NCBI GenBank assembly: GCA_038245785.1
Contig: JBBRSB010000023.1
Coordinates: forward strand, 16,512 to 80,511
Direction: 5' to 3'
DNA: 64,000 bases
From: Gloeobacterales cyanobacterium
GTDB lineage: Bacteria > Cyanobacteriota > Cyanobacteriia > Gloeobacterales > PMM-0068
Below the pieces are notes generated by a model. That model was not told the origin of the DNA, ran no database searches, and saw only the letters and a list, made by a program, of their open reading frames with translations. Of this stretch, positions 1,059 through 36,747 are shown piece after piece (position 1 is the first letter of the stretch; every line of letters begins with the position of its first letter). A program made the translations under genes and the position numbers.

Positions 1059-1297
1059 CATGAAATGAGAAAATAAAGCTGTGGACATTAAGCTGGGATG
1101 TCCGTCATGCGAGAAAGTGATACCCTGATTGGGTGTAAATCATTTCAAGGGCCGTCTGTTCCAAATACAGGTGCAAAGTGGTCTTTTACCCCTGTAGACT
1201 TCTAATTTTAGGCAAAGTAAGTAAGAATACGTACGTAGAACGACATAGCTAGTAGCTTTGTAGGTACAATCTGCACGTAAGAGGAGCGTTGAGCAAG

Positions 1298-2653
1298 ATG
1301 TCCCCAATAGCCTCTATCAACCTTGATACACTCCTTGAGATTGTTAACCACAAGCTGATTGAAGGTCAAAATCGTCCTCTCAACAGTATAGAAGTTCTTA
1401 TGCTGCGAGGCATCTGGCAATATCAGACCTATGGCCAAATTGCCCAAGCTGCTGGATACAGTCCTGGCTATCTAACGAATGTCGTTGCTCCAGAGATGTG
1501 CCAGAGACTCTCCCATCTCGTAGGAGAACGGGTTACCAAGAAAAACTGTCGGATGCTGCTAGAGTCCTACGCTGCTGTCCGAGCATCCCCTAACCCATCC
1601 CTACCCAAGAACCAAGTTTCACGCAAGACTGACCAAAATAGTTTTCCCTGCTATCCCAGCGGCGCAGTCCCTCTTGGCTCCCCTTTTTACATTGAACGTG
1701 TGCCTTTGGAGGAGCAAATTGCTCAAGAAATTCATAAGCCAGGAGCGCTCGTAAGAATTAAAGGGCCTCAGGAAATGGGCAAAACCTCCTTACTCCTGAG
1801 AGTGCTGGATGATGCCGAACGTCGAGGATATCGCACCGTCAGCCTAAACCTGGAACAAATCGACCAAGATATTTTGAGCGATCTGAATCGACTCTTGCGT
1901 TGGCTTTGCGTTACGGTTTCCCGCCAGCTAAAACTCGACCCCCTTTTGGACGAATACTGGGATGAGGATATAGGCAGTAAAGTCAGCTGCAGCTTCTACT
2001 TCCGCAGCTACCTCTTAGAACTCATAGAAGCTCCTATCGTCTTAGCTTTGGACGAGGTGAACCAAATTTTTGAGTATCCCCATGTAGCGAAGGACTTTTT
2101 ACCACTTCTGCGCTCTTGGTATGAAGAATCCAAACGACTCCCCATTTGGCAAAAGCTTCGGCTGATCGTGGTCCACTCGACGGAAATTTACGTTCCTCTC
2201 CAGTTGAATCAGTCCCCGTTCAACGTTGGACTACCGATTCAGCTATCTGGTATTGCTCTAGGGGAAGTCCAGCAGTTGGCCCAACGCTACGGTCTTGATT
2301 GGACCAGTAATCAGGCCCAGCAACTGATGGCTCTGTTAGAAGGACATCCCGCCTTAGTGCATATTGCCCTCTATCATCTCAGCCACGGGGAAATAACCTT
2401 TGAACAACTCCTAGAAACGGCTCCTACCTCCTCTGGAATTTATAACCATCATCTACAGCGTCATTCTGCAGCTCTGGAGCAACAGCCAGAATTAGCCCAT
2501 GCTCTTCATACCGTCATGAACGCCGCAGAACCCGTAGCCTTAGAACCGATCTTGGCCTATAAGCTGAGCAGTATGGGGCTGATCAAGCCGCTCGGAAATA
2601 AAGTAGTTCCAGGTTGTGAGCTGCATCGCCAGTATTTTAAGAATCATGAATAA
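1298..2653 (+). CDS. N-terminal HTH + AAA_35 (AAA-like) domain protein, probable regulator
   Basis: N-terminal 'LNSIEVLMLRGIWQYQTYGQIAQAAGYSPGYL' HTH-like segment; 'PSGAVPLGSPFYIER', Walker A-like GPQEMGKTS, Walker B LALDEV; ATG 1298 preferred over TTG 1289 for spacing from GAGGAG. Confidence 0.85.
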   Translation: MSPIASINLDTLLEIVNHKLIEGQNRPLNSIEVLMLRGIWQYQTYGQIAQAAGYSPGYLTNVVAPEMCQRLSHLVGERVTKKNCRMLLESYAAVRASPNPSLPKNQVSRKTDQNSFPCYPSGAVPLGSPFYIERVPLEEQIAQEIHKPGALVRIKGPQEMGKTSLLLRVLDDAERRGYRTVSLNLEQIDQDILSDLNRLLRWLCVTVSRQLKLDPLLDEYWDEDIGSKVSCSFYFRSYLLELIEAPIVLALDEVNQIFEYPHVAKDFLPLLRSWYEESKRLPIWQKLRLIVVHSTEIYVPLQLNQSPFNVGLPIQLSGIALGEVQQLAQRYGLDWTSNQAQQLMALLEGHPALVHIALYHLSHGEITFEQLLETAPTSSGIYNHHLQRHSAALEQQPELAHALHTVMNAAEPVALEPILAYKLSSMGLIKPLGNKVVPGCELHRQYFKNHE

Positions 2654-3195
2654 GACTTAGGGGACCGTTGATTGTCTTCATGTCGAAATAGCTACTTAAA
2701 AGAAAGGCTAGAAACCTTGTTCATGGCGTGAGAAGAAAAATACAACTAAAAGTTAATACCTTTACCGAAAGATCGTTCAATTGACTTTCTAGTTGTTCTA
2801 GTGAATATTTAGTTGTGCGTAGTTTCTTCTCACAGACTAGAATTCTATATCGTATCCATTCCGACTAGCGTGCACTGTATTAGAAGGCTAAATGCAGATT
2901 TTGCCTAACTAGAGATAGGGAATCTTCATCAGGAATTGGTACTATAGGGTCGTTTAATAATAGCAAAGTTAAAGTTTTAATTTAATGTTTGCTGTTTGCC
3001 AAAGCCAAAGAGCATGCCCCCGACATCAAGGCAAATCATTGTTTTGCATAGCGTTTTAGTAGAAAATTACCCAGCGGATCTAATGCTTTATAGGATTTTA
3101 GTTTTTATTAAGTCATCCTAGATAGTGAAAATTGAAATCCTTAGAAATTACTCCAAAAGTCAAGCTGTACATCATTATTCTAGGAGAACTGAACT

Positions 3196-3831
3196 ATGGT
3201 AGAAACAAATTCACTAGATCGTATTCTCGATATTTTGGGAACCGAAGACAAGTTTGAGGCTCAGACGAAGCTAAAGGAGAAGTTTGGTGAAGAAAAGATA
3301 GAACATGCAGTAAATCAATGGTCAGTATTGTGTGCGTGGTCTTGGCTTGAGCCTGCTGATTATCCACCAAACGAACAACAAGATGGTGACCAGGAAAAGC
3401 TGCGCCGTGCCTTTATCAAGGCAATTAAAGCGACAGCATTGACCTTGATTAAGGAACATTACAAGCCGGGTGCTTTTATGAAGGAGATTACAGCAAGAAG
3501 TAACGACCTGTCTAATATTTTGAATGGAACAGAACCGAAGGACTGTAAAATCAAATTGCCTGAGCTCTATAAAAAGCTCACAAGCAAGAAGGACTATATT
3601 TTTACCAAGGAGCTTACTGATAGCTTCTTATGGTTAACTAGTGTTGATCGATTTAATGGTATGTGTGCAGGCTATCTTCCTGAAAAAAATAAGATTGTAC
3701 AAATATTGGCTTATCCACCCCGTCCCACTACATCAGCTCTACCTAAGGAAGAATTGTTGAGCTGGTGTGAACAGAGTAAGAAAGACGAATACTATCCTCC
3801 TACTCCTTATATTCCCACCTGCAATTGCTGA
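3196..3831 (+). CDS. Putative RiPP precursor/substrate protein with NHLP-like leader features and C-terminal CxC
   Basis: AGGAGA RBS; directly upstream of the YcaO gene; 'SVLCAWSWLEP' and 'ILAYPPRPTTSALPKEELLSW' resemble the nitrile-hydratase-alpha/NHLP motifs 'VVARAWxDP' and 'LVLPxRP...LSEEEL'; ends YYPPTPYIPTCNC. Confidence 0.65.
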   Translation: MVETNSLDRILDILGTEDKFEAQTKLKEKFGEEKIEHAVNQWSVLCAWSWLEPADYPPNEQQDGDQEKLRRAFIKAIKATALTLIKEHYKPGAFMKEITARSNDLSNILNGTEPKDCKIKLPELYKKLTSKKDYIFTKELTDSFLWLTSVDRFNGMCAGYLPEKNKIVQILAYPPRPTTSALPKEELLSWCEQSKKDEYYPPTPYIPTCNC

Positions 3832-3855
3832 GAATTGTAAATTAGTACATTATGA

Positions 3856-3895
3856 AATGGGTATCTTTACCATTTAAGAGGGCAAGATACTCATT
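3856..3895 (+). terminator. 12-bp stem-loop downstream of the precursor gene (partial terminator or mRNA stabiliser)
   Basis: aatgggtatctt (3856-3867) pairs with aagatactcatt (3884-3895), one G-U pair; no clean U-tract. Confidence 0.55.
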
Positions 3896-4010
3896 CCACT
3901 AGAATTGTAGTTTATTGTGTTTTAATTATTAAGTTCTTATTTGCTCAACAGGTTGGCTAGCAGATCAGCTCACGCTCAATCAGGCGCGATTTACCTTACT
4001 TGATTGCAAC

Positions 4011-6293
4011 ATGCATCAGCATAATAAACCAAAACTTAAGGAATATTTTCGACTGGCAACTGAAGCGCCAGAGAATGTGTTTCTTATGTCTGAGAGGAAA
4101 ACCATATTACTTTGCGATCGTCTTTATGTTCAGTTGATTCCTTTACTCGACGGTTGTCATAGTGTTGATGAAATTATAGAACAGTTGCAAGATCAAATTC
4201 CTCCTGCTTATATCTATTACGGGCTGGCTCATCTAGAGAACCAAGGCTATTTGAGAAACAGTGACGAGCTTATCTCTCCATCATTAGCCATCTTTTGCGA
4301 TCACTTGAATATTAATGCCAAGACTGCTTACCATCAGTTGCAAAATACTAAGGTGACCGTCAGGGCAGTCGGCTCTGTTTCTACTTCAGAATTCGTTAAA
4401 ATTCTCAAACTGCACCAAATCCAGGTCACTGAAGATAAGGATTTGGAGACTGAACATGCTGATTTAAAGGTTGTGGTATGCGATGACTACTTACAAGTAG
4501 AGCTAGCAGCCCTAAATCAGGCAGCACTCGATCATTCGTGTCCTTGGCTTCTGGTTAAGCCCATCGGAACTGTGATTTGGCTTGGTCCACTATTTTATCC
4601 AAGAAAAACAGGCTGTTGGGAGTGTTTAGGGCAACGCTTAAAATGCAACCGCCCCGTTGAAGGATATCTAGCGCGACATACAGACACTGTAATACCTCTA
4701 ACACCCTATCTCAATACCATACCTGCAGTTTTGCACACAGCTTGGGGAATGGCAGCAACTGAGATCTTGAAATGGATTGTCCAAGATCGGCAAAATAAAA
4801 GGCTGGAAGGCACCTTAGTCACCCATGATACGCTAACGCTGGAAACTCAGAGCCATACGCTCATTAGGCGTCCTCAATGCCCTAGTTGTGGACTCATGAA
4901 AGGCAGCCGCGCAAACCCAGTTCCTTTGATTCTTGGCAATCGCAAGAAAACTTTTACTGCTGATGGTGGGCATCGTTGCAGTTCGCCGGAAGCAACTTTG
5001 AAAAAATATCAGCACCACATAAGTCCTATCACAGGAATTGTTCGAGAATTACAGAAGTTACCCTATAGCCTGGATGGTTTGCAGCATACCTATGTGGCAA
5101 AACACCATTTCATCTCAATGTTTGATGATCTTAAAATGCTGACTCAAAACATTGGAGGCAGAAGTGGAGGAAAAGGAAGAACGGACACACAAGCACGGGT
5201 TAGTGCTTTTGGAGAAGCTATAGAAAGATATTCTGGAGTTTTCCAGGGCGATGAAATCAGAATCAAAGGGAGCTACCAGCAACTCGCTGAATCGGCTATT
5301 CATCCCAATTCTTGTATGAATTTTAGTCAAGCTCAATACACAAACCGCAAACAATGGAATGACAGTTGTCAAAGTCCTTTTCAAAGCGTTCCCGAACCTT
5401 TTGATGAATTAAGAGAGATCGAGTGGACGCCCGTTTGGTCTTTGACCCAGCAACAGTTTAAGTATCTGCCAACTGCTTACTGCTACTTTGGCTATCCCAA
5501 ACCGTTAAAACCTGATTGTTGGGCAGATACAAACGGTTGTGCAGCGGGGAATACCTTAGAAGAAGCTATCCTGCAAGGTTTCATGGAATTGGTTGAGCGC
5601 GATAGTGTTGCTCTGTGGTGGTACAACAGGATTAAAAGACCTCACGTCAATTTAGACAGTTTCGATGACCCTTATTTCTCAGCTCTACAACGTTCCTATC
5701 AATCGATTAATCGGGAACTGTGGGTTCTTGATATCATCAGTGATCTGAATATTCCAACCTTTGTTGCTGTTAGCCGCTGTTACGATCGAAAAACAGAAGA
5801 TATCCTTTTAGGTTTCGGTGCACATTTTGATCCTAAGATCGCTCTTGGAAGAGCATTGACCGAAATTAATCAGCTCCTGCCTGCGGTTTTAGAAACGAAT
5901 GCTGATGGTGCGTCTCGGTATGCTTCTTCAGCTGAACATTTAGCACTCAGTTGGTGGAAGACAGCAACAGTGCAAAATCAGCCCTATCTAAATCCTGATA
6001 AAAGTAGTGTGCCCAAAGTATATTCTGACTATGAGCACGTATGGAGTGATGATTTGCTTGATGACATTCGTAGATGCCAGCAATTGGTGGAGCAAAGGGG
6101 AATGAAAATGCTAGTGCTAGATCAAACCCGGAGTGATATTGGATTGAAAGTAGTTAAAGTTATTGTGCCAGGAATGCGCCACTCTTGGAAACGTCTAGGA
6201 CCAGGACGACTTTATGACATTCCGGTGCAATTAGGATGGCTACAAGAACCAATGCCAGAAGAGAGCCTTAACCTCTTGCCAATGTGTCTATAA
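4011..6293 (+). CDS. Fused RRE/E1-like + YcaO cyclodehydratase (PatD/TruD/LynD-like TOMM heterocyclase)
   Basis: PWLLVKPIGTVIWLGPLFYPRKTGCWECL, RRPQCPSCG, DGGHR, SGGKG, GEAIERYS, NGCAAGNTLEEAILQGFMELVERDS, RALTEINQ, VKVIVPGMRH, GRLYDIPVQLGW. Confidence 0.95.
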   Translation: MHQHNKPKLKEYFRLATEAPENVFLMSERKTILLCDRLYVQLIPLLDGCHSVDEIIEQLQDQIPPAYIYYGLAHLENQGYLRNSDELISPSLAIFCDHLNINAKTAYHQLQNTKVTVRAVGSVSTSEFVKILKLHQIQVTEDKDLETEHADLKVVVCDDYLQVELAALNQAALDHSCPWLLVKPIGTVIWLGPLFYPRKTGCWECLGQRLKCNRPVEGYLARHTDTVIPLTPYLNTIPAVLHTAWGMAATEILKWIVQDRQNKRLEGTLVTHDTLTLETQSHTLIRRPQCPSCGLMKGSRANPVPLILGNRKKTFTADGGHRCSSPEATLKKYQHHISPITGIVRELQKLPYSLDGLQHTYVAKHHFISMFDDLKMLTQNIGGRSGGKGRTDTQARVSAFGEAIERYSGVFQGDEIRIKGSYQQLAESAIHPNSCMNFSQAQYTNRKQWNDSCQSPFQSVPEPFDELREIEWTPVWSLTQQQFKYLPTAYCYFGYPKPLKPDCWADTNGCAAGNTLEEAILQGFMELVERDSVALWWYNRIKRPHVNLDSFDDPYFSALQRSYQSINRELWVLDIISDLNIPTFVAVSRCYDRKTEDILLGFGAHFDPKIALGRALTEINQLLPAVLETNADGASRYASSAEHLALSWWKTATVQNQPYLNPDKSSVPKVYSDYEHVWSDDLLDDIRRCQQLVEQRGMKMLVLDQTRSDIGLKVVKVIVPGMRHSWKRLGPGRLYDIPVQLGWLQEPMPEESLNLLPMCL

Positions 6294-6352
6294 TTCTCTG
6301 AATATTTTGGTTATTACTGAGTCTCCTATCCCAGCAAACGGTTTTGTATTTT

Positions 6353-7426
6353 ATGTTAAAGGGTTATCGAATCATTGATGCTGATGCTCACGTCCATGAA
6401 CCTCACACTATGTGGGCGGATTACCTTGAGCCTTCCTTTAGACACTTTGCCCCTTCATCGGATCTAAAGATCGGAGGGGAAGCAGTCATTAATCAGCTCT
6501 CTGAGCAGTATTTGCGTCAATGGACAAATCCAATTTTGCAAGTTGAGCCATTAGCAGGTTCTGACCCCCAAATCCAGGTGCAAGCCATAATGCAGATGGG
6601 TATTGACATTGCATTTATTTATCCAACATCACTTTTGTTTATAAGTGCTGTAGATACTATGGCACCTCAGCTAGCAGGTGCTTTTATTCGTGCTTATAAC
6701 AATTGGTTGCACGATTTTTGCAGTTTTAACCCTCAAATCCTTAAAGGTGTGGGGGGTATAAACCTTCATGCTCCAGAAGAAATGGTCCCTGAATTGTTGC
6801 GGGTTGTTGGATTTGGCTGGAAATCAATCTTTATACGCCCTAATCCTGTTAAGGGTCGCATCTTGAGTGATCCAGCTTATGAACCTTTCTGGCAAACCTG
6901 TGAGGAGCTAGAGGTCGCAATCTGTCTTCATGAAGGAACTCCCAGTCGTCTTCCTACTGTCGGAGCCGATCGCTTTAAAAGCCGCTTCGCTTTGCGCTCC
7001 TGTTCACACCCCATGGAACAAATGATGGCATTACTTACCTTAATAGAAGGAGGTGTCCTTGAACGCCATCCTACACTCAAAATTGGTTTTCTAGAGTCAG
7101 GAGGGGGTTGGTTACCCTATTGGTTATGGCGACTCGATCAAGAGTACGAGAATTCACGCTGGGAGCTCGCAAACAATGTGAAGATTAAGCCTTCAGAATA
7201 TTTTCATCGTCAGTGTTTTATTTCTATTGAACCTTCAGAGCCATATCTTGCCCAAATCCTTGATTATATTGGCTTAGATAATATTCTCTTTGGTTCTGAT
7301 TATCCTCACGGAGAGTATCAACCAGATATTGTTGATCAAGTTGTTGCCCTCGAAGAACAACTGTCACGAAAAACTATACAAAAGATTTTATGGGATAATC
7401 CTGCTCGCTTTTATGGGTTAGTGTAA
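6353..7426 (+). CDS. Amidohydrolase_2 family metallohydrolase
   Basis: IIDADAHVHEP, AYNNWL, LHEG, FLESGGGWLP, LFGSDYPH, ILWDNPARFYGL. Confidence 0.9.
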   Translation: MLKGYRIIDADAHVHEPHTMWADYLEPSFRHFAPSSDLKIGGEAVINQLSEQYLRQWTNPILQVEPLAGSDPQIQVQAIMQMGIDIAFIYPTSLLFISAVDTMAPQLAGAFIRAYNNWLHDFCSFNPQILKGVGGINLHAPEEMVPELLRVVGFGWKSIFIRPNPVKGRILSDPAYEPFWQTCEELEVAICLHEGTPSRLPTVGADRFKSRFALRSCSHPMEQMMALLTLIEGGVLERHPTLKIGFLESGGGWLPYWLWRLDQEYENSRWELANNVKIKPSEYFHRQCFISIEPSEPYLAQILDYIGLDNILFGSDYPHGEYQPDIVDQVVALEEQLSRKTIQKILWDNPARFYGLV

Positions 7427-7470
7427 AATTGTAAGACTGATTTCAAATCAAGACGAGAGGGGGGACTGAT

Positions 7471-8481
7471 ATGGCTAGCGAGCAGTTTCCGGTTGCAGGA
7501 GTTGATGAACAGATACTATTTGACTTGAGCTGCTCCAGAGTTATAGGTCCTGTAATAACATTAGCGCAAGAGATCAACCTATTTGAACTCTTTAATCAAA
7601 CACCTCAAACGATTGATAGCGTCGTCAAGAATCTTAAAGTTACACCTTTAGTCTCTGAAGCTTTCATCGCTGTTCTTGCTGCATTTGGGTTACTTCAAAG
7701 ACAAAACGATAAGCAGTTTAAGCTAACAGAAATTGCAAAAACGTATATGCTGCCAGAAAGCCCCTTTTTTTATACAGGGTTTTGTCCTCCGCAAGAATGG
7801 TATCTGGATCTGCTTCGCATGAAAGTTTTAAGTGGCGGTCAACCACCTATGCCACTAGCTGTTGGGATGAAACACCATAGAGTTGAGGTAATACGAAGTT
7901 TCATCGAGCGGATGCATATGATGACACTTCCAGCAGCAGCAAGTTTGGCTAAACAACCCGTTTTCGGAAGAATATCTCACCTCCTTGATGTTGGAGGTGG
8001 ATCAGGTTCACTTGCGATAGCTATTGCAGCAATCAACCCACAGATTCGATGCACAATTATGGATCTCGAACCTGTTTGTCAAATTGCACACGAAAACATT
8101 GAGAAGTATGGTTTGCAAGAACGGGTTACTACTGTTTCAAAAGACATGTTTGAAGATCCCTGGGGAGAAGAACCTGATGGCATTCTATTCGGCAATATCT
8201 TTCACGACTGGGATTTGGAGCGCTGTTATTTCTTAGCTAAACGAGCATTCGATGTACTCAAATCTGGCGGAAGTATCTTGATGCATGAAATGCCTTTAAA
8301 TGAAACAAAAGATGGCCCACTGACAGTAGCATGTCTATCTGCTATATTGCTGATGTATGAGAATGGTAAGCAATATACATTGAGTGAACTAGAAAAGATA
8401 ATGTCCTCAGTAGGTTTTATTAACTTTAAATCTACACCTACCTTTGTTTATTATCATCTAATCACTGCTTCAAAGCCATAA
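7471..8481 (+). CDS. SAM-dependent methyltransferase (Methyltransf_2 type with dimerisation domain)
   Basis: LLDVGGGSG motif I, 'KDMF', 'GNIFHDW', 'LKSGGSILMHE'. Confidence 0.9.
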   Translation: MASEQFPVAGVDEQILFDLSCSRVIGPVITLAQEINLFELFNQTPQTIDSVVKNLKVTPLVSEAFIAVLAAFGLLQRQNDKQFKLTEIAKTYMLPESPFFYTGFCPPQEWYLDLLRMKVLSGGQPPMPLAVGMKHHRVEVIRSFIERMHMMTLPAAASLAKQPVFGRISHLLDVGGGSGSLAIAIAAINPQIRCTIMDLEPVCQIAHENIEKYGLQERVTTVSKDMFEDPWGEEPDGILFGNIFHDWDLERCYFLAKRAFDVLKSGGSILMHEMPLNETKDGPLTVACLSAILLMYENGKQYTLSELEKIMSSVGFINFKSTPTFVYYHLITASKP

Positions 8482-8517
8482 TGTTTTTTAGCAGCTTTAG
8501 GCAGAGGGAGAATCATA

Positions 8518-11500
8518 ATGAGAAGCCTTAATGATTACCAAATTACTACTCAAATCTATGAAAGCTTCAACTCGTTAGTTTATAGGGCGGTTCTTAAAAC
8601 TAATAATCAATCTGTTATTTTGAAGATTCTCAAAGAGGATTACCCCTCCCCCTCAAAACTAACAAACTATAAACAGGAGTATGAAATCACTCGCTCTTTA
8701 AATGCAACTGGAGTGATCAAGGTTTATGGTTTGCAAAGATATCGTAATACGCTTGCAATAATTGAGGAAGATTTTGGAGGTATATCTTTAGATATTTTAT
8801 TAAACTCTAGAGGTCTTGCATTATCAGAATTCCTTACTATCGCCATTAAAATTACTGAGGGTCTGGGTGAGATTCATACTGCTAACGTTATTCACAAAGA
8901 TATTAATCCCTCCAACATTGTTTGGAATGCAAAAACAAATCAGCTTAAAATTATTGACTTTGGTATTTCCACAGTGTTAACGCGTGAAAATCCATCAATC
9001 AAAAATCCGAGTGTTCTAGAAGGAACCCTGGCCTATATGTCACCCGAGCAAACGGGGAGAATGAATCGGGTACTTGACTACACTACGGATTTTTACTCCC
9101 TTGGTGTGACCTTTTACCAAATGCTAACCGGTTACTTGCCCTTTGAAGCGAATGAAGCCTTAGAACTAGTGCATTGTCATATTGCTAAGCACCCCGTTGC
9201 GCCTTATGAACTTAAGTCAGATATTCCTAAGGTAGTTTCTAGTCTGATTATGAAATTGTTGGCAAAAACATCAGAAGAGCGATACTTAAGTGCTTTTGGA
9301 ATAAAAGCTGATCTCGAAGAATGTTTTAGACAGTTACAAACAACTAGAAAAATTCTAGATTTCCCTCTTGCACAACAAGACACTTCTAATAGATTCAGCA
9401 TCCCACAAAAACTTTATGGCAGAGAACAGGAAATTGAAAAATTATTATCAACGTTTAAACGTGTTACTCAGACCAAGGAAGAGCAAGTACGAAAACATGT
9501 CGAAATGATACTAATTCGTGGCTATTCCGGCATTGGAAAATCTGTACTGGTACGAGAACTCTATAAACCAATTACTGCTGAGCAGGGCTATTTTATTTCT
9601 GGAAAGTTTGAACAGTTTCAGCGTAATATTCCTTATTCTGCAATTACCTCTGCCTTTCGTTCTCTCATACAGCAACTCTTAGCTGAAAATGATATACAGT
9701 TATCACAGTGGCGTGAGAAACTCCTAGCAGCACTTGGTTCTAATGGACAAGTAATTGCTGATGTTATACCTGAGATAGAACAAATTGTTGGACCTCAATC
9801 TCCTGTACAGCAACTGGAACCAATAGAGGCACAGAATCGATTTAGCCTCGTCTTTCAAAAGTTTGTCCAAGTGTTTTGTCAGCAATCACATCCACTGGTT
9901 ATCTTTTTGGATGACTTACAGTGGGCAGACTCAGCCAGTTTAAAGGTCATTGATTTGATGATGACTGATGACCAGATGCAATATTTGCTATTAATTGGAG
10001 CTTACAGAGATAATGAAGTTGATCTAAGTCACCCTTTGTCAATAACTCTTAAGGGTTTAGAAAAAGGTGGAGCTATTTTACAATGGATGACCCTGGTTCC
10101 CCTAGCTCTTCCTCATGTTACCCAGTTGATTGCTGACACTCTCCACAACGAACTGGAATCGGTTGAACTGCTAGCAAAATTGATTCACCAAAAAACATCA
10201 GGCAATCCTTTCTTTGTCAATGAATTTCTTAAAACTCTCTACCAGGAAAACCTTTTACAGTTTTCGTGGCAACAGCGTCGCTGGCAATGGGATATTGCTC
10301 AAATTCAGGCTTTAGGTATTACAGAATATGTAGTTGATCTGCTGATTAGTAATTTAAGAAAAATTCCAGAGAAATCTCAACAAGTTTTGTATCTAGCTGC
10401 TTGTATTGGCAATAGTTTTGATCTCCATACTCTCTCAACTATTTACGAAGAACCTGTTGTAAAAACATTTTCAGATCTATTACCTGCTATCCAATCTGGA
10501 CTCATTCAACCTACTTCAAATCTAGAAATTTCTTCAGACGAAACCATCGATTCCTCACTAATTATTCTTAACTTTAATTTTTTACACGATCGGGTGCAGC
10601 AGGCAGCCTATGCCCTAATCGATGATGAGCTAAAGAAAGCTATTCATCTGCAAATTGGACAACTGATATTATCCAATGCTTCATTAAATGAACTAGATGA
10701 AAAAATATTTAAGCTAGTCGATCACCTTAATAAGGGAAAAAACTTAATTGAGCATGAAGAAAAAAAAGTTGAATTGGCTAAATTGAATCTAAAAGCAGGT
10801 AACAAAGCGAAGGAAGCCACAGCTTATGTAGCGGCTAGAGAGTATCTGCTCTCAGCCACCGAAACTTTTCCTGGAAATATTTGGGAAGACAATTATGAAC
10901 TGGCTGTAGAGCTGTATAAAGAACTAGGACAGGTTGAATATCTTAACGGCAACTTTCAGGAATCGGAATTGTTGATTAAATCTAATCTGGATAAAGTCAA
11001 TTCAGCAATCGAGCGCTCTGAATTCTATTATCTTTTAGTCGAGCAGTACACCATGCTTGGCAAGTATTCCGAGGCAATTCAGTCAGGACGCATTGCACTT
11101 GAAGATCTGGGTATTATCTTACCTGATCAGGATTTTGACCAAGCTCTTGAAGCTGAGCTAATTAGATTTAGTGATAATTTAGGCGTTCGAGAAGTAAGTT
11201 CTCTTATTGATAATTTAAAAATGGCAGATCCAGCGAAGCGTTCTGCTTTAGATTTATTGATAAAATTACAACCTCCAACTTATTTGAGTGGTTCAGAGCT
11301 TGCAGGCATCGTAATGGCTAAATCAGCGAATTTGAGTGTTGAACATGGTCATACATCCAAATCTGCGATTAGTTACGGAATATTTGGTATGCTGCATTCA
11401 ATGCTAGGCAACTATCAACTTAGTTACCAACTTACACTGTTAGGATATCAGCTTAGTATAAAATTTGACGACTATTATTCTATAAGCCAAACAGCCAATT

Positions 11501-14500
11501 ACCTTGCTAATTTCTCTCTTTTATGGGTTAGGCACATCAAAGAAACTGAAAGTTTTAATGCTGAATCAATTAATTCTGGATTGCAGTCAGGAATGCTCCA
11601 GTTTACTGGTTTTAGTATGACTCACATATTGTTAAATAGAATTTATCAAGGCAAAAATATATCTCCTTTTCTTGATGAAGCATTTAATATTTTAGCTTTC
11701 TCCAGAAAAACGAAAAATCAATGGTCTACTGATTGCATCTTAGGGCAGGCAATAATATTAGCAAATCTACTGGCTCAGACACAGGACAAACTATATTTTG
11801 GTTGTAATGAGGTTGATGAATCTCAGTACCTAGATGAAGAGGGAACTAGCCGAACCTCAAATGCCATCTGCTATTATCACATTTTCAAGGCTCAAGTTTT
11901 ATACTTATATAACAAGCTAGATCTAGCATTAGTCTCAATTGCCAAAGCTCAAAAACTGTTAGCTTTCATCCCTGGTACTATTCATGCTTCTACTTATAAC
12001 TTCTACTATTCTCTAATTTTAATTGCTCTTTATCCAACTGTCTCTCTAGAGAAACAGCGAGAGTATTGGAGGCAGATTGAGGCTAACCAAGAGCAGATTA
12101 AAAATTGGGTAAATCAATGCCCTGACAATTTTCTCCATAAGTATCTTCTGGTTGAGGCAGAAATGGCTCGTGTATTAGGTAAATGGTATGAAGCAGAGGG
12201 TCTGTACGACCAATCCATTGAGTCAGCAAGAAAATATGACTTTTCCCAAAACGAAGCTTTATCAAATGAACTCGCAGCCAAGTTTTGGCTAGCTAGAGGT
12301 AAAGAAGAATTTGCCCAAATCTACATGAAAAAAGCTTACCAAGGCTATCAAATGTGGGGAGCTAAGCGCAAGGTAAAGGATTTAGATGTGAGATATCCTG
12401 AGTGGTTTAATTCAAAATCATCTTTAAGTCAAGATACTTCTCTCAATCTTTTAAAAACTTCTAAAACTTTCACTGAAGTATTGGATTTAGCCACAGTAAT
12501 AAAAGCCTCACAGGCAATTTCGGGTGAGATAGTTGAAATCGATCTATTAGAAAAGCTGATGAAAATTATGATTGAGAATGCTGGCGCTCAAGTTGGTTTT
12601 CTCATCTTAGAAAAGAAAGGTCAACTAGTAATTGAGGCCCAAGATTCTGTCGAACAAAATGCGGTGATAGTGTGTCAATCAATCCCGGTTGAAACTAGCC
12701 AGCAGTTGCCCCTATCTCTAGTTAATTATGTAGTAAGAACCAGAGAAGATGTTGTCTTGGCAGATGCAACTCGTGAAGGCAGATTCACCGCAGATCCTTA
12801 TGTTTCTCAAAATCGATCTAAATCTATTCTGTGTATGCCGATCGTCCATCAAGGAAAACTTATCGGTTTACTATATCTAGAAAATAATTTAACGACAGAT
12901 GCTTTCACCCCAGACCGATTAGAAGTACTAAAGCTTTTGTCCTCTCAGGCAGCCATTTCTTTGCAAAATGCCCAACTTTATATCGCATTGCGTGAAAGTG
13001 AAAGAAAGCTCGCTCAAATTTTAGAAGCAGTGCCAGTGGGCGTGTTCGTGATTGATGCTAAAGGCAACCCTTACTATGTTAATCGAACTGCCCAACAGAT
13101 ACTTGGGAAGGGCGTCGTACCCGAAGCCACGACTGCTCAATTGCCTGAAACCTATCAAGCTTATCTGGCGGGGACGGAGCAGTTGTACCCCACCGAGCAG
13201 CAGCCCATCATGCGAGCCTTGAAGGGAGAAAGGACAACCATCGACGATCTTGAGATTCACCAAGTTGATAAGATTATTCCCTTAGAAGTGTCAGCCACAC
13301 CAGTCTTCGATGAGAAGGGTCAAATTGTCTATGCTATAGCCGCTTTTGCTGACATCACTCAACGAAGACAAGCAGAAGCCGAGCGCATTCAATTCACTCA
13401 AGAGCTAGCACTCAAAAATGAAGCTTTGCAGGAAGTAACCGATGAATTAGAAGAGTACAGCCGTACTTTGGAGCGAAAAGTTCAGGAGCGTACCCAAGAG
13501 TTGACACAGACTCTGGAAATTCTTAAAGCCACGCAATCTGAACTTCTCTTTGAAAACGATCTCCTAAGAAGTGCTGAGCAAACCTCCAACTTTGACTATC
13601 AAGTAGGGGGGAGTTTGCCCATGGATGCTCCTACCTATGTGGTACGTGCCGCAGACCGTTATCTCTACAAAGCATTGATGCGTGGAGAGTTTTGCTATGT
13701 CCTCAATGCGCGTCAAATGGGCAAGTCAAGTCTTATGGTCCGTATGATCTATCACCTCCAACATGAAGGTCTTAGCTGTGCTGCCATTGATATGACTCGT
13801 ATTGGCAGTGAAAACGTCACGGTGGACCAATGGTACAAGGGATTGGCGATGGAGTTGTGGCAGAACTTTGATCTAATGAGAAAAGTTAATTTGAGGACGT
13901 GGTGGAATGAGCGACTTGATGTTTCTCCTGTCCAGCGGTTGAGTCAATTTATTGAAGAAGTTCTTCTCGTTCATGTCGGAGTAGAAGATGGTCTTCGCAA
14001 ACAAGTAATCATTTTTATTGATGAAATTGATAGTCTTTTGAGCTTAAATTTTCCGGTTAACGATTTTTTCACTCTGATTCGCTCTTGTTATAACCAGCGC
14101 AGTCTCAATCCAGCCTATCAACGGCTAAACTTTGCTTTCTTTGGCACAGCAACCCCTTCGGATTTAATTACGGACTCCCAGAGAACGCCTTTTAATCTTG
14201 GTCAGGCCATCCGTCTAGAAGGCTTTAAAGAACATGAGGCCCAGCCACTGCTTCAAGGATTGGCGGAGAAAGTCAGTAACCCACAGGTAATTCTCAAAGA
14301 GGTATTAGCTTGGACCAATGGTCAACCTTTCTTAACACAGAAATTATGTAGGCTTATACGTACTGCTGCTTCCCCTATTCCTGGCAACAATGAGGCTGAG
14401 TGGATTGAGCATTTAGTCCAAACGCAAATAATAGACCACTGGGAATCACAGGACGAACCAGAACATTTGAGAACCATTCGGGATCGCTTACTCAGTAATG

Positions 14501-14733
14501 ACCAACAGAAGAGACCCTTGTTGAGACTTTACCAAAGAATTTTGCAACAAGATGAAATCCCTGCTGATGATAGCCCTGAGCAAAGAGAATTAGTACTATC
14601 AGGATTGGTTTCTAAACACAAGGGCAAGGACCAAACAGATATGCCCAAACTTATAGCCAATAACCGCATTTACAAGACTATTTTCAATCTGTCTTGGGTT
14701 GAACAGCAGTTGGCTCATCCTGACTCGCGTTGA
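8518..14733 (+). CDS. Multidomain Ser/Thr kinase - AAA ATPase - helical repeats - GAF - PAS - coiled coil - AAA_35 protein
   Basis: [27 protein letters not shown]; GYSGIGKS and [10 protein letters not shown]; GAF '[22 protein letters not shown]'; PAS '[12 protein letters not shown]'; C-terminal '[17 protein letters not shown]...RQMGKSS...IFIDEID...[13 protein letters not shown]'. Confidence 0.9.
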
Positions 14734-14742
14734 CTCGGATGT

Positions 14743-15360
14743 CTAACCATAATTTCGACGGGCAGCGACAGAATAGAACTGAAACTCCGGCATGACCAGG
14801 GCCGTGAGTCTTCCGCCATAGACACATCCCGTATCTAAACCTATAGCAACCGGCTGCCCTTTCCATTGTTGAATCAGCGGTTGTTTCATCACTCGATGGC
14901 CGAATAGCACCAGTCGTTCTTCCTGATAGTTTTTGTACCAGGGCGTACGCATTTCTGTTAATGCTTCTGGCTGTTGCTCTTCCAGTGCTACCCCAAGCTT
15001 TAAGCCAGCATGGACTATATCGCCGTGTTGGGTACGGCGATAGAAAGGTAGATTGCGGAGATAGGCCAAAGCTTGCGGATTTTTTTTCAAAAGTTTTGCA
15101 GTAAGGGCTGCCACATGAGGGAGCGATTTTTTCCCTTCAAAATGGCGAACCATAGCCCAGTCATGATTTCCCATCACCGCCTCAGCCTGAACTTCTTGGA
15201 TCAGCTCAAGGAGCCCCAAAAAGTCTGGCCCCCGATTGCAGAGATCCCCGGTTAGGTAAACGCGGTCAGTCCGTGTTAGCCCTACCTTATCAAGAAGACG
15301 ACCAAGCTCACTTGCGCAAGCATGGACATCGCCAATAAAGATTTCACGGGATTGGGTCAT
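14743..15360 (-). CDS. Metallophosphoesterase (ApaH/PrpA-like)
   Basis: IGDVH, GDLCNRGP, GNHD, VHAG, FGH, LDTGCVYGG; start moved to ATG 15360. Confidence 0.9.
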   Translation of the reverse strand: MTQSREIFIGDVHACASELGRLLDKVGLTRTDRVYLTGDLCNRGPDFLGLLELIQEVQAEAVMGNHDWAMVRHFEGKKSLPHVAALTAKLLKKNPQALAYLRNLPFYRRTQHGDIVHAGLKLGVALEEQQPEALTEMRTPWYKNYQEERLVLFGHRVMKQPLIQQWKGQPVAIGLDTGCVYGGRLTALVMPEFQFYSVAARRNYG

Positions 15361-15489
15361 GTGAAAATAGCACCAACGAAGGAAATACGATCCGCTCGTT
15401 GGTGTTAGTAAACCGCATAACAGCACCCCAGGTCTAGGGTTTGCATTCAGAAAAGTTCTAAATACGGGGTTAGCAGCGATGACTAAGTC

Positions 15490-15957
15490 CTAATATTTAA
15501 ATTCTTCTCCTCCTCTTCTGCGCTCTTTCCGTTCTGCCTTTAACTGATCCAGCTTAGTACGTTGCTCGGGAGTCAAAATCGCATTCAGTTTTTGTTTGTA
15601 GTCATCACGGGCCTGTTGGAGCTGAGGTTTCAGCGTTTGCATTTGGTTGCGAATACTCTGCAATTTCGCTTGGTCCCCTGATTCTCGGGCGGCTTTAGCT
15701 TGAGAGCGCAGGTCTTTCGCTTGAGTCATGAGGGGGCCATTCTTTTGTTTCTCTTGCTCCTTGAGCGCACGAATTTGGTCTTTTTGTTGGGTGGAAAGAT
15801 TCAATTGATCCAGCTTACGCATGCCTCGCTCACCCCTTTCTCCTCGTTCACCTCTTTCTTGGGGAGGAGCTTCAGGAGCAGGAGATGGTTGTGCATAGGC
15901 AACTACGGGAGATAAAGAAAGAACAGCCATGAGGAGGGCGGGAATCCAACGTTTCAT
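15490..15957 (-). CDS. Spy/CpxP family periplasmic chaperone (LTXXQ)
   Basis: Signal peptide, 'LNLSTQQKDQI' and 'ILTPEQR' motifs. Confidence 0.8.
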   Translation of the reverse strand: MKRWIPALLMAVLSLSPVVAYAQPSPAPEAPPQERGERGERGERGMRKLDQLNLSTQQKDQIRALKEQEKQKNGPLMTQAKDLRSQAKAARESGDQAKLQSIRNQMQTLKPQLQQARDDYKQKLNAILTPEQRTKLDQLKAERKERRRGGEEFKY

Positions 15958-34536: not shown

Positions 34537-36747
34537 ATGGTCAAGGAAGTGAGTCAACAAACCATGAGCAATCAGCTAAGCAACAAAATAATTGGTAAAA
34601 ATCTTAATGGGCGATACCGTGTAATCTCTGCTCTGGGGACGGGTAGATTCGGCACAACCTATTTAGCCGAAGATCAGCACCGCCCGGGCCGTCCTCGCTG
34701 CGTAATCAAGCAATTACAGCTCAATAGCAACAACACTCAATTGGTGGAAGTTACCCGTCGGCTCTTCAATACAGAGGCCGAAACTTTGCAAAAAATTAGC
34801 CATCATGAACAAATTCCCGAACTATTGGCCTCTTTTGAGGAGAAAGGACAGTTTTTTCTAGTACAGGAATTTATCCCTGGTCCCTCTCTGATATCGGAAA
34901 TCCTTACAGATCAGGCGTTACCTGAGCCACGGGTAAATAAACTCCTTAAAGAAATTCTCCAAGTATTGGAGTTTGTCCATGCGCAGGGCGTGGTTCACCG
35001 TAATCTCAAAGCAGACAATATCATTCATCATGAGCAGCTCGATAAGTGGGTATTGATCAACTTTGGCTCGGAAAAAGCGCTAAAGGAGATTAGCGACCAA
35101 CTGATGGGCCAAAAGAAAGATGCGGCAGAGACGTTCTCCCCGCCTGGGTATGCTCAGGAAAAATCAACTATCAGCAATGGTCCTTCAGCCAGCTCAGATA
35201 TCTACGCCTTGGGGATGATTTGCCTACAAGCACTCACAGGGATAGCACCCAGTGACATTGAGCGAGATTTGAAAACGGGAGAAATTCGCTGGCCTGCCGA
35301 GATAACATCCCGAGTGAGTCCAAAACTCAGAAATATTATCTCCAAAATGGTATTTCATGACTCCAGCCAACGATACTCATCAGCAACGGAAGTATTACAA
35401 GCTCTCAATACCTCTCCAGGATTCCCTCTCCCTAAACATTTGAAGCCTGTACAGGCTGAACAAACTCCTGAGGCAGTGCCACAGGTGCTCAGACCGGAAG
35501 TGTCCAGACCTGTAACTTCTGCTTTTAATGCTTCTTCCCAGGGCAATCCATTTCCTCTTCCTCCCGATACCCCACAGATGCCAAACAGACCAAGCATACC
35601 GAGGCCTAGAACCGTCCCTGAACGTTCGGATGCGGACTCGGTTTTCGCTCAGCCTGTAGTTGTGGAAACTCCTGCATCTCCATTACCCTTGTGGATGAGC
35701 GGTGTTGGAGTCTTTACCGCTTTTATTGCCGCTGGATTTTTTCTTTGGATCAGCGTTAAATCAGACAGCAATAATGCACTCATAACGAGTAAGCCTCCGG
35801 CTCAAGAATCAACCAAGGAATCAACCACAGCACAGGACCAATTAAATGCTGAGCAGCGAGCCCTTCTGCAAGAGGCGGATACACCAATCAAATCGCAGTC
35901 AGAGCGCAAAGCTTTCAGCCAGCAACAGCTAGCAGCCAAAACTCCTGTGCCTGCATTTAAAGAAGAGGTCCCTGTACCCGTTCCTCCACCTCCTCAACTA
36001 AAAATCCCTGCTGTCTCAGCTCCTCCAACCCAATCAACAGCCAAAGCTTCTGCAAACCAGTCAGCAACGCTCAACAGTTCTACCCAAAACCAGGCATCGA
36101 CCAAATCAAATCTGGCGGTTCCCTCTGTAAAGAGTACGGTAGCTCCTAGTGCAAAGACTGAAGCGAGCACCACAGGCAGTACAACAAAGGCATCAGAACC
36201 TGCTCCTACGCCCTCAAACGTGGAAGATAAGGCCATCCAAGAAGCTAAACCAACAGAACCAGATAAATCTCCTGTAGCTATCCCAGGTCCAATCGTCAAG
36301 AACACTCCAGAGCTAAGCCCAATCCCTAGCAAACAAGAGGCTCCTGCAACTCCTACGCCTCTCCTTTCTGTTAATAAAACTTCAGAACCAAGTTCTTCTC
36401 CTCAGCCTGTAAATAAAAGCGGAGACCGCGATGTTGTTGCGACAGCAAGTCCGGTCAGTAGTCGCGTTGATATTTCTTTAGTCAACGCAACGGGTACGCT
36501 TGTGTCCTATCAAGTCCTTGGAAATACAGACGAGCGTTATCTCTATGCTGATATGAGGTCCAACCTGCGTGGGTTACCCGCACCCGCTAATGTGAGTTTT
36601 TACCGTCCTGACCGTGGGCCGATTGAAATTATTACCAAGACTATCGCACCAGGAAAAGTACAAGTAACGCTCAGACGTGGTAGCGGTCCTGACAACGACC
36701 ATAGCTTTTTGACGGTTCAAGATTCTGGCAAAGTTACGTTGGACTAA
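34537..36747 (+). CDS. Membrane-anchored Hanks-type Ser/Thr kinase-like protein (probable pseudokinase)
   Basis: LNGRYRVISALGTGRFGTTYLAED, CVIKQL, HRNLKADN, INFG, SDIYALG; TM 'LWMSGVGVFTAFIAAGFFLWI'; Pro/Ser/Thr-rich linker. Confidence 0.85.
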   Translation: MVKEVSQQTMSNQLSNKIIGKNLNGRYRVISALGTGRFGTTYLAEDQHRPGRPRCVIKQLQLNSNNTQLVEVTRRLFNTEAETLQKISHHEQIPELLASFEEKGQFFLVQEFIPGPSLISEILTDQALPEPRVNKLLKEILQVLEFVHAQGVVHRNLKADNIIHHEQLDKWVLINFGSEKALKEISDQLMGQKKDAAETFSPPGYAQEKSTISNGPSASSDIYALGMICLQALTGIAPSDIERDLKTGEIRWPAEITSRVSPKLRNIISKMVFHDSSQRYSSATEVLQALNTSPGFPLPKHLKPVQAEQTPEAVPQVLRPEVSRPVTSAFNASSQGNPFPLPPDTPQMPNRPSIPRPRTVPERSDADSVFAQPVVVETPASPLPLWMSGVGVFTAFIAAGFFLWISVKSDSNNALITSKPPAQESTKESTTAQDQLNAEQRALLQEADTPIKSQSERKAFSQQQLAAKTPVPAFKEEVPVPVPPPPQLKIPAVSAPPTQSTAKASANQSATLNSSTQNQASTKSNLAVPSVKSTVAPSAKTEASTTGSTTKASEPAPTPSNVEDKAIQEAKPTEPDKSPVAIPGPIVKNTPELSPIPSKQEAPATPTPLLSVNKTSEPSSSPQPVNKSGDRDVVATASPVSSRVDISLVNATGTLVSYQVLGNTDERYLYADMRSNLRGLPAPANVSFYRPDRGPIEIITKTIAPGKVQVTLRRGSGPDNDHSFLTVQDSGKVTLD

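Follow-up and report, generated by a model that had tools for sequence, protein, structure and literature searches.

A 211-residue protein encoded on the forward strand at positions 3196-3831 of a 64,000-nucleotide stretch of Gloeobacterales cyanobacterium DNA (contig JBBRSB010000023.1 of assembly GCA_038245785.1; the whole stretch is hereafter the window) is, in our assessment, probably a long-form substrate of the nitrile-hydratase-like leader peptide (NHLP) clan for the cyclodehydratase encoded beside it, the C-terminus forming an azoline that then undergoes oxidative decarboxylation to give a terminal thiazole. A giant STAND-type Ser/Thr kinase is inherited together with the cassette, as one is with the NHLP-Burk cassette of Burkholderia. 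A role as substrate is supported by the fast divergence of the precursor, by its multiple copies and fused double forms in relatives, and by its fixed four-residue tail. Coordinates below are those of the window and its + strand unless another locus or strand is named.

The precursor and its conserved C-terminus

The gene (3196..3831, stop codon included) is an ATG-initiated open reading frame (ORF) that belongs to a conserved family and is present as a single copy in the window's own genome. A first-pass annotation of this DNA had described the ORF, two motifs, a 21-residue tail and the absence of Gly-Gly; all four are as it described them, and our translation, with the frame verified against the DNA, is the one it quoted. 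The first motif, QWSVLCAWSWLEP (residues 41-53; 3316..3354), is the counterpart of motif 1 of NHLP leaders and nitrile hydratase (NHase), the ..A-W-x-D.. helix, as judged from its invariance among close homologues and from hhalign. The second, ILAYPPRPTTSALPKEELLSW (residues 170-190; nucleotides 3703-3765), lies ~125 residues further along and reads ILAYPPRP...LPKEELLSW. It is followed by the tail CEQSKKDEYYPPTPYIPTCNC (residues 191-211; 3766..3828), in which a conserved Y-x-P-P-x-P-Y-I-P precedes the predicted modification site, T-C-N-C (nucleotides 3817-3828). No Gly-Gly occurs in the whole 211-residue sequence, and an NHLP-type cleavage site of the form ELSDE.L..VAGG is absent from it.

The AlphaFold2 (AF2) model of the protein, with a predicted local distance difference test score (pLDDT) of 77 and a predicted template modelling score (pTM) of 0.76, contains a domain of ~170-190 residues, which bears out the earlier suggestion of an expanded, folded leader; pLDDT falls below 50 over residues 199-211. 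Residues 54-143 (3355..3624; boundaries approximate) are a helical expansion relative to NHLP leaders, with predicted helices at 64-89, 95-109, 121-129 and 138-141, and are missing from family members of 113-116 residues. They are followed by three predicted beta-strands (144-149, 156-161 and 166-172) in a segment that ends in P-P-R-P and also aligns in hhalign (residues 144-177; 3625..3726), and then by an L(X)4L-x2-W helix, L-P-K-E-E-L-L-S-W (residues 182-190; 3739..3765), which is the homologue of NHLP motif 2 and a candidate enzyme-recognition element. The long form appears to be an NHLP scaffold in which ~80-90 residues of helices replace or expand residues ~54-143, and this expansion explains the separation of about 120 residues between two NHLP echoes that the annotation had rightly pointed out. 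No link between residues 54-143 and the middle region of NHase was found; the segment may be a new insert or a relic of that region.

A word-indexed search recovered 14 homologues of 210-226 residues (43-100% identity), and phmmer, run exhaustively over 1.84 billion representatives, recovered 35 at E <= 0.001, including 15 at E <= 1e-10. In an alignment of 14 close homologues (A1), the invariant residues comprise Q41, W42, S43, L45, A47, W48, S49, W50, L51, E52 and P53 in the first motif, L171, A172, P174, P175, R176, P177, L182, L187 and W190 in and around the second, and P204-C209 and C211 in the tail. A 40-sequence alignment (A2) retains S43, W48, G155 and P177 as invariant, with at least 90% conservation of Q41, W42, W50, Y173, P174, P175, L187, W190, P201, Y205, I206 and P207. 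Five conserved blocks are apparent in both alignments, namely Q-W-S-x-L-x-A-W-S-W, L-T-L-P..Y..L-T-G, D-x-F-x-G, L-A-Y-P-P-R-P, and L-x-x-W with Y-x-P-P-x-P-Y-I-P and a short end after it; judged from these alignments, the conservation of motifs across the precursor family is greater than expected by chance.

Among 75 unique family C-termini gathered from all proteins and loci at hand, 73 end in [YF][ILV][PA] plus a short tail, which is exactly four residues long in 67 of the 73. The last residue is Cys in 42, Ser in 21, Thr in 8 and Leu in 2, every one of the 73 short tails holds at least one Cys, Ser or Thr, and in most family members the very last residue is the only such residue of the tail. 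In the hhalign register, the family's W-x-x-[G/Q] falls at the ..V-A-G-G cleavage site of NHLP leaders, and the segment aligned to NHLP motif 2 plus the Gly-Gly site reads L-P-K-E-E-L-L-S-W-C-E-Q; a "core" would therefore start near residue 194, close to the boundary drawn in the first-pass annotation. The very short C-terminal core proposed there survives as a four-residue modifiable end, but the remainder of the tail is a motif conserved throughout the family rather than a free Pro/Tyr-rich core.

The scan of one genome per species placed the family in 19 loci, all of them cyanobacterial, and 13 of 401 sampled genomes of the phylum match it at E <= 0.001. Locus L008 has three family ORFs (5165-5947, 7857-8585 and 13953-14681), and L046 and L048 have two copies each, the pair in L046 being 116 and ~193 residues long in a locus where the oxygenase gene is also duplicated (6622-7710 and 9315-10391). 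Fused double forms of 408-446 residues (P0015, 408; P0032, 435; P0034, 446) carry two leader domains per chain, and in them only the last, C-terminal repeat retains a Y-I-P tail, which argues that the modifiable residue must sit at the true end of the polypeptide. Across loci the precursor is 22-49% identical, compared with 55-79% for the enzymes. Our literature searches turned up no description of this cyanobacterial long-form family, of its product or of the product of NHLP-Burk.

Bridge forms to NHLP leaders and nitrile hydratase alpha

Searches that start from the long form itself stop short of both groups. With the 211-residue protein, phmmer against the PDB gave one chance match (E 0.079) and the ESM Atlas gave no usable match; the helical segment of residues 54-143 had no fold match in the PDB, and fold searches with the long form failed to reach NHLP or NHase alpha. 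The hidden Markov models (HMMs) TIGR03793 (cut-off 50.9 bits) and TIGR04351 (TOMM_nitrile_2, cut-off 65 bits) matched neither the protein nor anything in its own genome, TIGR03795 (cut-off 41 bits) matched neither the protein nor, at E <= 0.1, its genome and was likewise without a match in 14 control genomes, and the NHase alpha models PF02979 and TIGR01323 left the protein unmatched. The C-x-x-C-S-C metal-binding claw of NHase alpha does not occur in the sequence. A direct hhalign comparison of the long family with two genuine NHase alpha subunits gave E 0.039, and this alignment, like the direct one with cyanobacterial NHLPs that is weighed below, was confined to the strand, P-x-R-P and acidic-helix segment; passages of PMC2887384 describe P-x-x-P as conserved in NHase, NHLP and NHLP-Burk.

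The link is made by shorter family members of 113-160 residues, which occur in cassettes of the same type and which we call bridge forms. One of 116 residues (L046:7887-8234) adjoins two oxygenase homologues and a kinase homologue, and further bridge relatives of 116, 160 and 113 residues complete a length continuum of 116, 160 and 193-260 residues. These proteins combine NHLP-like N-terminal helices with P-P-R-P, L-x-x-W and a Y-I-P-x-x-x-C end, and their residues 9-29 map by phmmer onto the QWSVLCAWSWLEP motif in many long members. Their matches to NCBIfam models are sub-threshold throughout: E 8e-9 and 34.9 bits for TIGR04351, E 2.8e-6 to 5.5e-9 for TIGR03793 (27.1 bits and E 2.8e-6 for the 116-residue form), and E 4e-5 for TIGR01323, with TIGR03795 reached only by the 113-residue cyanobacterial relative at E 4e-4. 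In hhalign, the bridge forms align to the long family at 98.8% probability (E 7e-17; bridge residues 6-116 on family columns 30-210), to canonical NHLPs at 97.2% (E 3.3e-11) and to NHase alpha at 91.6% (E 8.4e-7), and the long form aligns to them over residues 149-210 at E 1.4e-14. In the AF2 model of the 116-residue bridge (pLDDT 80.3), three helices and three strands lead to P-P-R-P and a further helix, and the model's best structural matches in the PDB are NHase alpha and NHLP structures. Because the bridge forms connect the long family to both NHLP and NHase alpha, we take the 211-residue protein to be an NHLP-clan leader. As far as the profiles go, its homology to NHLP and NHase alpha holds only transitively, so that the relationship proposed in the first-pass annotation stands by way of the bridge forms and is not reached by HMM, profile or fold searches that start from the protein itself.

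Two other cyanobacterial genomes (L036 and L038) have a 113-residue NHLP-like protein between giant-kinase and YcaO homologues. L036 also has a second, much shorter ORF, within a 73-codon open frame, that keeps only the A-x-A-W-L helix, P-x-K-P, L-x-x-W and a C-terminal Cys; taken with the long members, it extends the family from ~70 to 260 residues.

The element for which the earlier annotation had proposed EEL as the recognition signal was also located through these alignments. L182-P-K-E-E-L187-L-S-W190 aligns in hhalign with the ELSDE.LE..AGG segment of NHLP leaders, that is, with motif 2. The EE pair is not conserved: of the 73 pattern-matched sequences (among 75 unique ones), only 3 have EE ahead of the conserved Leu, with SE, EQ, SD and QQ commoner, and what is conserved is hydrophobic-x4-Leu-x2-Trp (L182, L187 and W190). 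On the aligned sequences, then, the annotation had chosen the right candidate element and the wrong residues. According to passages of Vidya et al. (PMC12537861), L(X)4L is the primary recognition site in NHLP leaders for the halogenase SrpI. When the precursor (alignment A2) was co-folded with the whole YcaO protein (alignment A3), the score was 0.00, which is uninformative on binding.

The cassette and its proposed chemistry

Four genes on the same strand follow the precursor, the first beginning 180 nucleotides downstream. It encodes a 760-residue protein (4011..6293) that fuses a winged-helix domain resembling a RiPP (peptide made by ribosomes and modified after translation) recognition element (RRE), an E1-like domain and a YcaO cyclodehydratase (PF02624, 4.7e-105; PF21084 at residues 9-82). 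This protein exceeds the cut-offs of TIGR03604 (272.5 bits; cut-off 219.25) and TIGR03882 (165.6 bits; cut-off 36.9), and its PDB matches include MusD (1.6e-224), LynD (1.8e-207, over residues 9-758) and TruD (1.9e-206). It is followed by a 360-residue Amidohydro_2 protein (6344..7426; PF04909, 7.9e-33), which we read as a dinuclear oxygenase of the PtmU3/BarH/LynB7 kind, by a 336-residue class-2 O-methyltransferase (7471..8481; PF00891, 2.4e-27), and by the 2,071-residue Ser/Thr kinase (8518..14733), in which Pfam finds AAA_16 (STAND-type), GAF, PAS and AAA_35 domains. No flavin mononucleotide (FMN) dehydrogenase is present in the cassette.

The reading of the Amidohydro_2 protein as an oxygenase follows its closest structures and its metal ligands. 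Its best PDB relative is the nonheme diiron monooxygenase PtmU3 (1.7e-32), followed by SfbO-group proteins and ACMSD-type decarboxylases. A ligand set aligned to the PtmU3 positions (D14, H16, H196, E251, D319 and H322) is present in all 21 sequences compared, the window enzyme and 20 orthologues. As described in passages of PMC10127204, the lyngbyapeptin enzyme LynB7, a relative of PtmU3 and BarH, uses D11, H13, H197, E252, D320 and H323 as ligands and converts 2-substituted thiazoline-4-carboxylic acids to thiazoles by oxidative decarboxylation, for which a free carboxylate is required. Parts of a 2026 paper (PMC13154177) attribute the same reaction to the BarH-like E0U9F9 and present its clade as large and without a known product, with a "thiazoline synthase" in ~69% of neighbourhoods.

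Taken with the YcaO enzyme, these analogies point to a route to a terminal azole. The L-x4-L-x2-W / P-P-R-P region is the likeliest site by which the leader domain would dock on the enzyme. The YcaO domain would then turn Cys209, Cys211 and perhaps Thr208 into azolines by cyclodehydration, the final one being a C-terminal thiazoline-4-carboxylate. The BarH/LynB7/E0U9F9-like diiron oxygenase could convert this carboxylate to a terminal thiazole by oxidative decarboxylation, and the O-methyltransferase would add a methyl group in the window's subclade only. Passage through an azoline-4-carboxylate to a terminal azole would account for the feature that defines the family, a chain whose very last residue is Cys, Ser or Thr. 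The modified tail may remain attached, or an unlinked protease may set it free, since the protein has no Gly-Gly and the scanned window proteins include no exporter or protease. We tentatively entertain the further possibility that the whole folded 211-residue protein is the end product, with a (methylated) thiazole as its C-terminal cap that is read by the 2,071-residue kinase, and that no diffusible peptide is made. If so, filamentous cyanobacteria would be using azole modification at the level of a protein in signalling, and NHLP-Burk would be the counterpart in proteobacteria.

Gene order across the 19 loci ties the precursor to both the enzymes and the kinase. YcaO homologues occur in 15 of the 19 and oxygenase homologues in 16, the misses being short contigs or loci with the enzymes farther off, and kinase homologues occur in 15 of the 19 and also in L046-L050. 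Upstream of the precursor in the window lies a gene for a 454-residue AAA_35 (AAA-like) protein (1289..2653; PF14516, 9e-149), and AAA_35 homologues recur beside the cassette in many loci. In L010, L018 and L050 the precursor's direct neighbours are the genes for AAA_35 and the giant kinase, and YcaO and oxygenase genes are both absent within 7-8 kb; in the genome that holds L050 (G029), these two genes lie ~12 kb from the precursor, beyond two kinase genes. This arrangement indicates that linkage of the precursor to the kinase is at least as tight as its linkage to the modifying enzymes. The O-methyltransferase is more restricted: tblastn found it in L001-L004 and L007, all with TCxC tails, in addition to the window, and in 0 of 12 loci with other tails, L005 and L006 being too short to tell.

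The window's AAA_35 protein has a ~120-residue N-terminal region beyond its Pfam match, and the giant kinase ends in an AAA_35 domain of its own.

Several observations weigh against the interpretation of the precursor as a decarboxylated NHLP-clan substrate. Pfam and NCBIfam searches left the 211-residue protein without any match at E <= 1, the A1 profile retrieved no NHase from the PDB and instead four pilin rows at E 0.68-3.2, and the direct hhalign comparison of the long family with cyanobacterial NHLPs gave E 0.011 and 3.7% probability. The tail shows conservation in place of hypervariability, an unusual trait in a RiPP core, and no peptidase-ABC exporter or leader protease was found among the Pfam-scanned window proteins. 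The likeness of the oxygenase to E0U9F9, LynB7 and BarH is drawn from published descriptions rather than direct sequence comparison, and in the window, L001-L004 and L007 the seventh residue of its ligand shell, 324, is a Glu, as it is in the hydroxylase PtmU3; these make up 6 of the 21 sequences, which comprise the window enzyme and its orthologues in L001-L019 and L046-L049. The non-significant direct profile and structure comparisons would fit a convergent or chance resemblance to NHLP in an unrelated new fold with P-x-R-P and an acidic helix. We regard this as the least probable of the alternatives, against which stand the graded length series, three motifs and a gene context shared along it, probabilities of 92-99% at each transitive hhalign step, and a bridge model that is closest in structure to NHase alpha and NHLP. 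An accessory role for the folded protein, as a scaffold, chaperone, immunity protein or regulator, with the real precursor in an unannotated small ORF, would suit a large, well-folded, conserved domain with a conserved tail and those loci in which the protein lies beside kinase and AAA_35 genes with YcaO ~12 kb away. It seems doubtful to us given that Cys, Ser or Thr is last in 71 of the 73 tails, placed four residues past Y-I-P, that the short members are typical NHLP-like precursors in the same place between kinase and YcaO, that some loci hold several paralogous copies, and that the short ORFs flanking the gene in the window (2996-3121 and 3132-3257) contain no Cys.

The main rival for the chemical step concerns the window's subclade, in which the end may undergo PtmU3-type hydroxylation of the tail or azoline followed by O-methylation, or carry a methyl-esterified azoline carboxylate, with no decarboxylation in either case. 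Linear cyanobactins provide a precedent for the latter, their C-terminal azoline carboxylate being esterified by a methyltransferase. The Glu324 loci are exactly those with the O-methyltransferase and a TCxC tail, and the remaining 15 of the 21 orthologues have Asp, as reported in passages of PMC10127204 for the decarboxylating LynB7/BarH family, where Asp replaces E313 of PtmU3. The Glu324/Asp324 split may be functional, separating hydroxylase-like from decarboxylase-like enzymes, or may be a signal of lineage alone. The Glu324 link is a one-residue correlation in a single lineage whose loci are kin and not independent, all the other oxygenase ligands are identical, and the TCxC subclade also keeps the terminal Cys, so we hold this alternative to be unlikely, if a serious one. 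A true PurAH-like hydrolase that cuts beside the azoline, and so either frees a tiny modified peptide or trims the end, would agree with Pfam Amidohydro_2 membership, with the lack of another protease in the cassette, and with the activity of PurAH as a thiazoline-specific amidohydrolase (passages of PMC10885120). Its nearest solved relatives are instead the oxygenase PtmU3 and decarboxylases, PurAH is not among the 43 PDB sequences at E <= 0.01, LynB7 of the same oxygenase family is given as 14% identical to PurAH in the excerpted text of PMC10127204, and in most members nothing beyond the terminal Cys, Ser or Thr is left to trim. On the PDB matches and the LynB7/PurAH identity we rejected the hydrolase as a main model and consider it very improbable. 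We retain oxidative decarboxylation of a C-terminal azoline as the preferred reading.

Unrelated neighbours in the window encode a calcineurin-like phosphoesterase (14743-15426, - strand), an LTXXQ/metal-resistance periplasmic protein (15490-15957, - strand), a second Ser/Thr kinase of 736 residues (34537-36747, + strand), and a long catalase whose C-terminal domain is DJ-1/PfpI-like (42934-45057, - strand). Promoter and terminator scans of 2600-4100 gave signals at or below shuffle expectation.

Comparison with known systems

The window's YcaO protein is a close full-length homologue of LynD, TruD and MusD, including the N-terminal leader-binding region. Unlike in the cyanobactin systems, no PatA/PatG-type protease is found among the Pfam-scanned window proteins, and whereas cyanobactin substrates are multi-cassette PatE-like peptides, the putative substrate here is a folded protein with a single four-residue end. 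The oxygenase belongs to the same superfamily as BarH, LynB7, DolJ and E0U9F9, has the same metal ligands, is likewise cyanobacterial and is encoded beside an azoline-forming enzyme, and the substrate logic of the BarH/LynB7 type fits a C-terminal Cys with a free carboxylate. BarH and LynB7 differ in having Asp where the window oxygenase has Glu324, as PtmU3 does, and the known members act on products of non-ribosomal peptide synthetases or polyketide synthases or on model acids, none having been shown to act on a ribosomal substrate. If the proposed route is correct, the precursor would be the first ribosomal substrate of diiron oxidative decarboxylases of the BarH/LynB7 type and a natural substrate for the large orphan E0U9F9 clade, and the cassette would form a terminal azole using neither an FMN dehydrogenase nor a P450.

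Bottromycin biosynthesis resembles the cassette on paper, combining a YcaO enzyme, an amidohydrolase and an O-methyltransferase and deriving a terminal thiazole from a C-terminal thiazoline carboxylate. It differs in its follower peptide, stand-alone YcaOs, hydrolytic PurAH and decarboxylating P450, where the window has a leader domain, a fused E1-YcaO protein and an oxygenase-type enzyme. "Anabaenasin" and the other orphan classes of thiazole/oxazole-modified microcins (TOMMs; Cox et al. 2015) were excluded, having discrete C and D proteins and Gly/Cys-rich peptides.

Canonical NHLP/proteusin leaders (TIGR03793; nuclear magnetic resonance structures 8tb1 of MprE and 9cjx of DprE2, as covered in parts of PMC12537861) share the element order predicted for the window family, with helices, a small beta-sheet ending at Pro, and an L(X)4L segment before the core. 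The bridge forms match them by profile (97.2%) and by fold, and the azoline modification of MprE cores by a YcaO enzyme parallels the chemistry proposed for the window cassette. In contrast to canonical NHLPs, the window family is without a Gly-Gly site, a hypervariable core and a peptidase-domain transporter, has the large helical insertion, and is unmatched by their HMM. NHLP leaders are the best-known protein-like leaders among RiPPs, and here that scaffold is stretched to ~190 residues and the "core" shrunk to a fixed four-residue end.

Among known systems, the NHLP-Burk TOMM system (TIGR03795; Haft, Basu & Mitchell 2010, PMC2887384) comes closest, on the evidence of the published passages that describe it. 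These give its precursors as NHase-alpha-related, without Gly-Gly, with P-x-x-P and with a Cys or Cys-Cys end ~11 residues past the leader, and they report fused pairs in Delftia and Acidovorax. The window family likewise has an NHase-alpha-related leader, no Gly-Gly, a C-terminal Cys and P-x-x-P. The context also agrees, in that the window combines a fused cyclodehydratase, a large Ser/Thr kinase and a precursor with a C-terminal Cys (TCNC) and no Gly-Gly. The tandem and fused double precursors of NHLP-Burk are matched by the 408-446-residue fusions of relatives; the window genome has its single copy and no such pair. NHLP-Burk is proteobacterial, with a leader of ~108 residues and an insert of ~15, in contrast to the cyanobacterial window family with ~190 residues and a helical insert of ~80-90, and neither the window protein nor its genome matches the TIGR03795 HMM. 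A giant kinase is constantly linked to this family, as one is to NHLP-Burk (uncharacterised since 2010); this suggests a part in regulation or signalling and not that of an antibiotic, and with three or four genes in the system the proposed chemistry is directly testable. The window family is a cyanobacterial, strongly expanded counterpart of NHLP-Burk within an uncharacterised kind of kinase-linked TOMM cassette.

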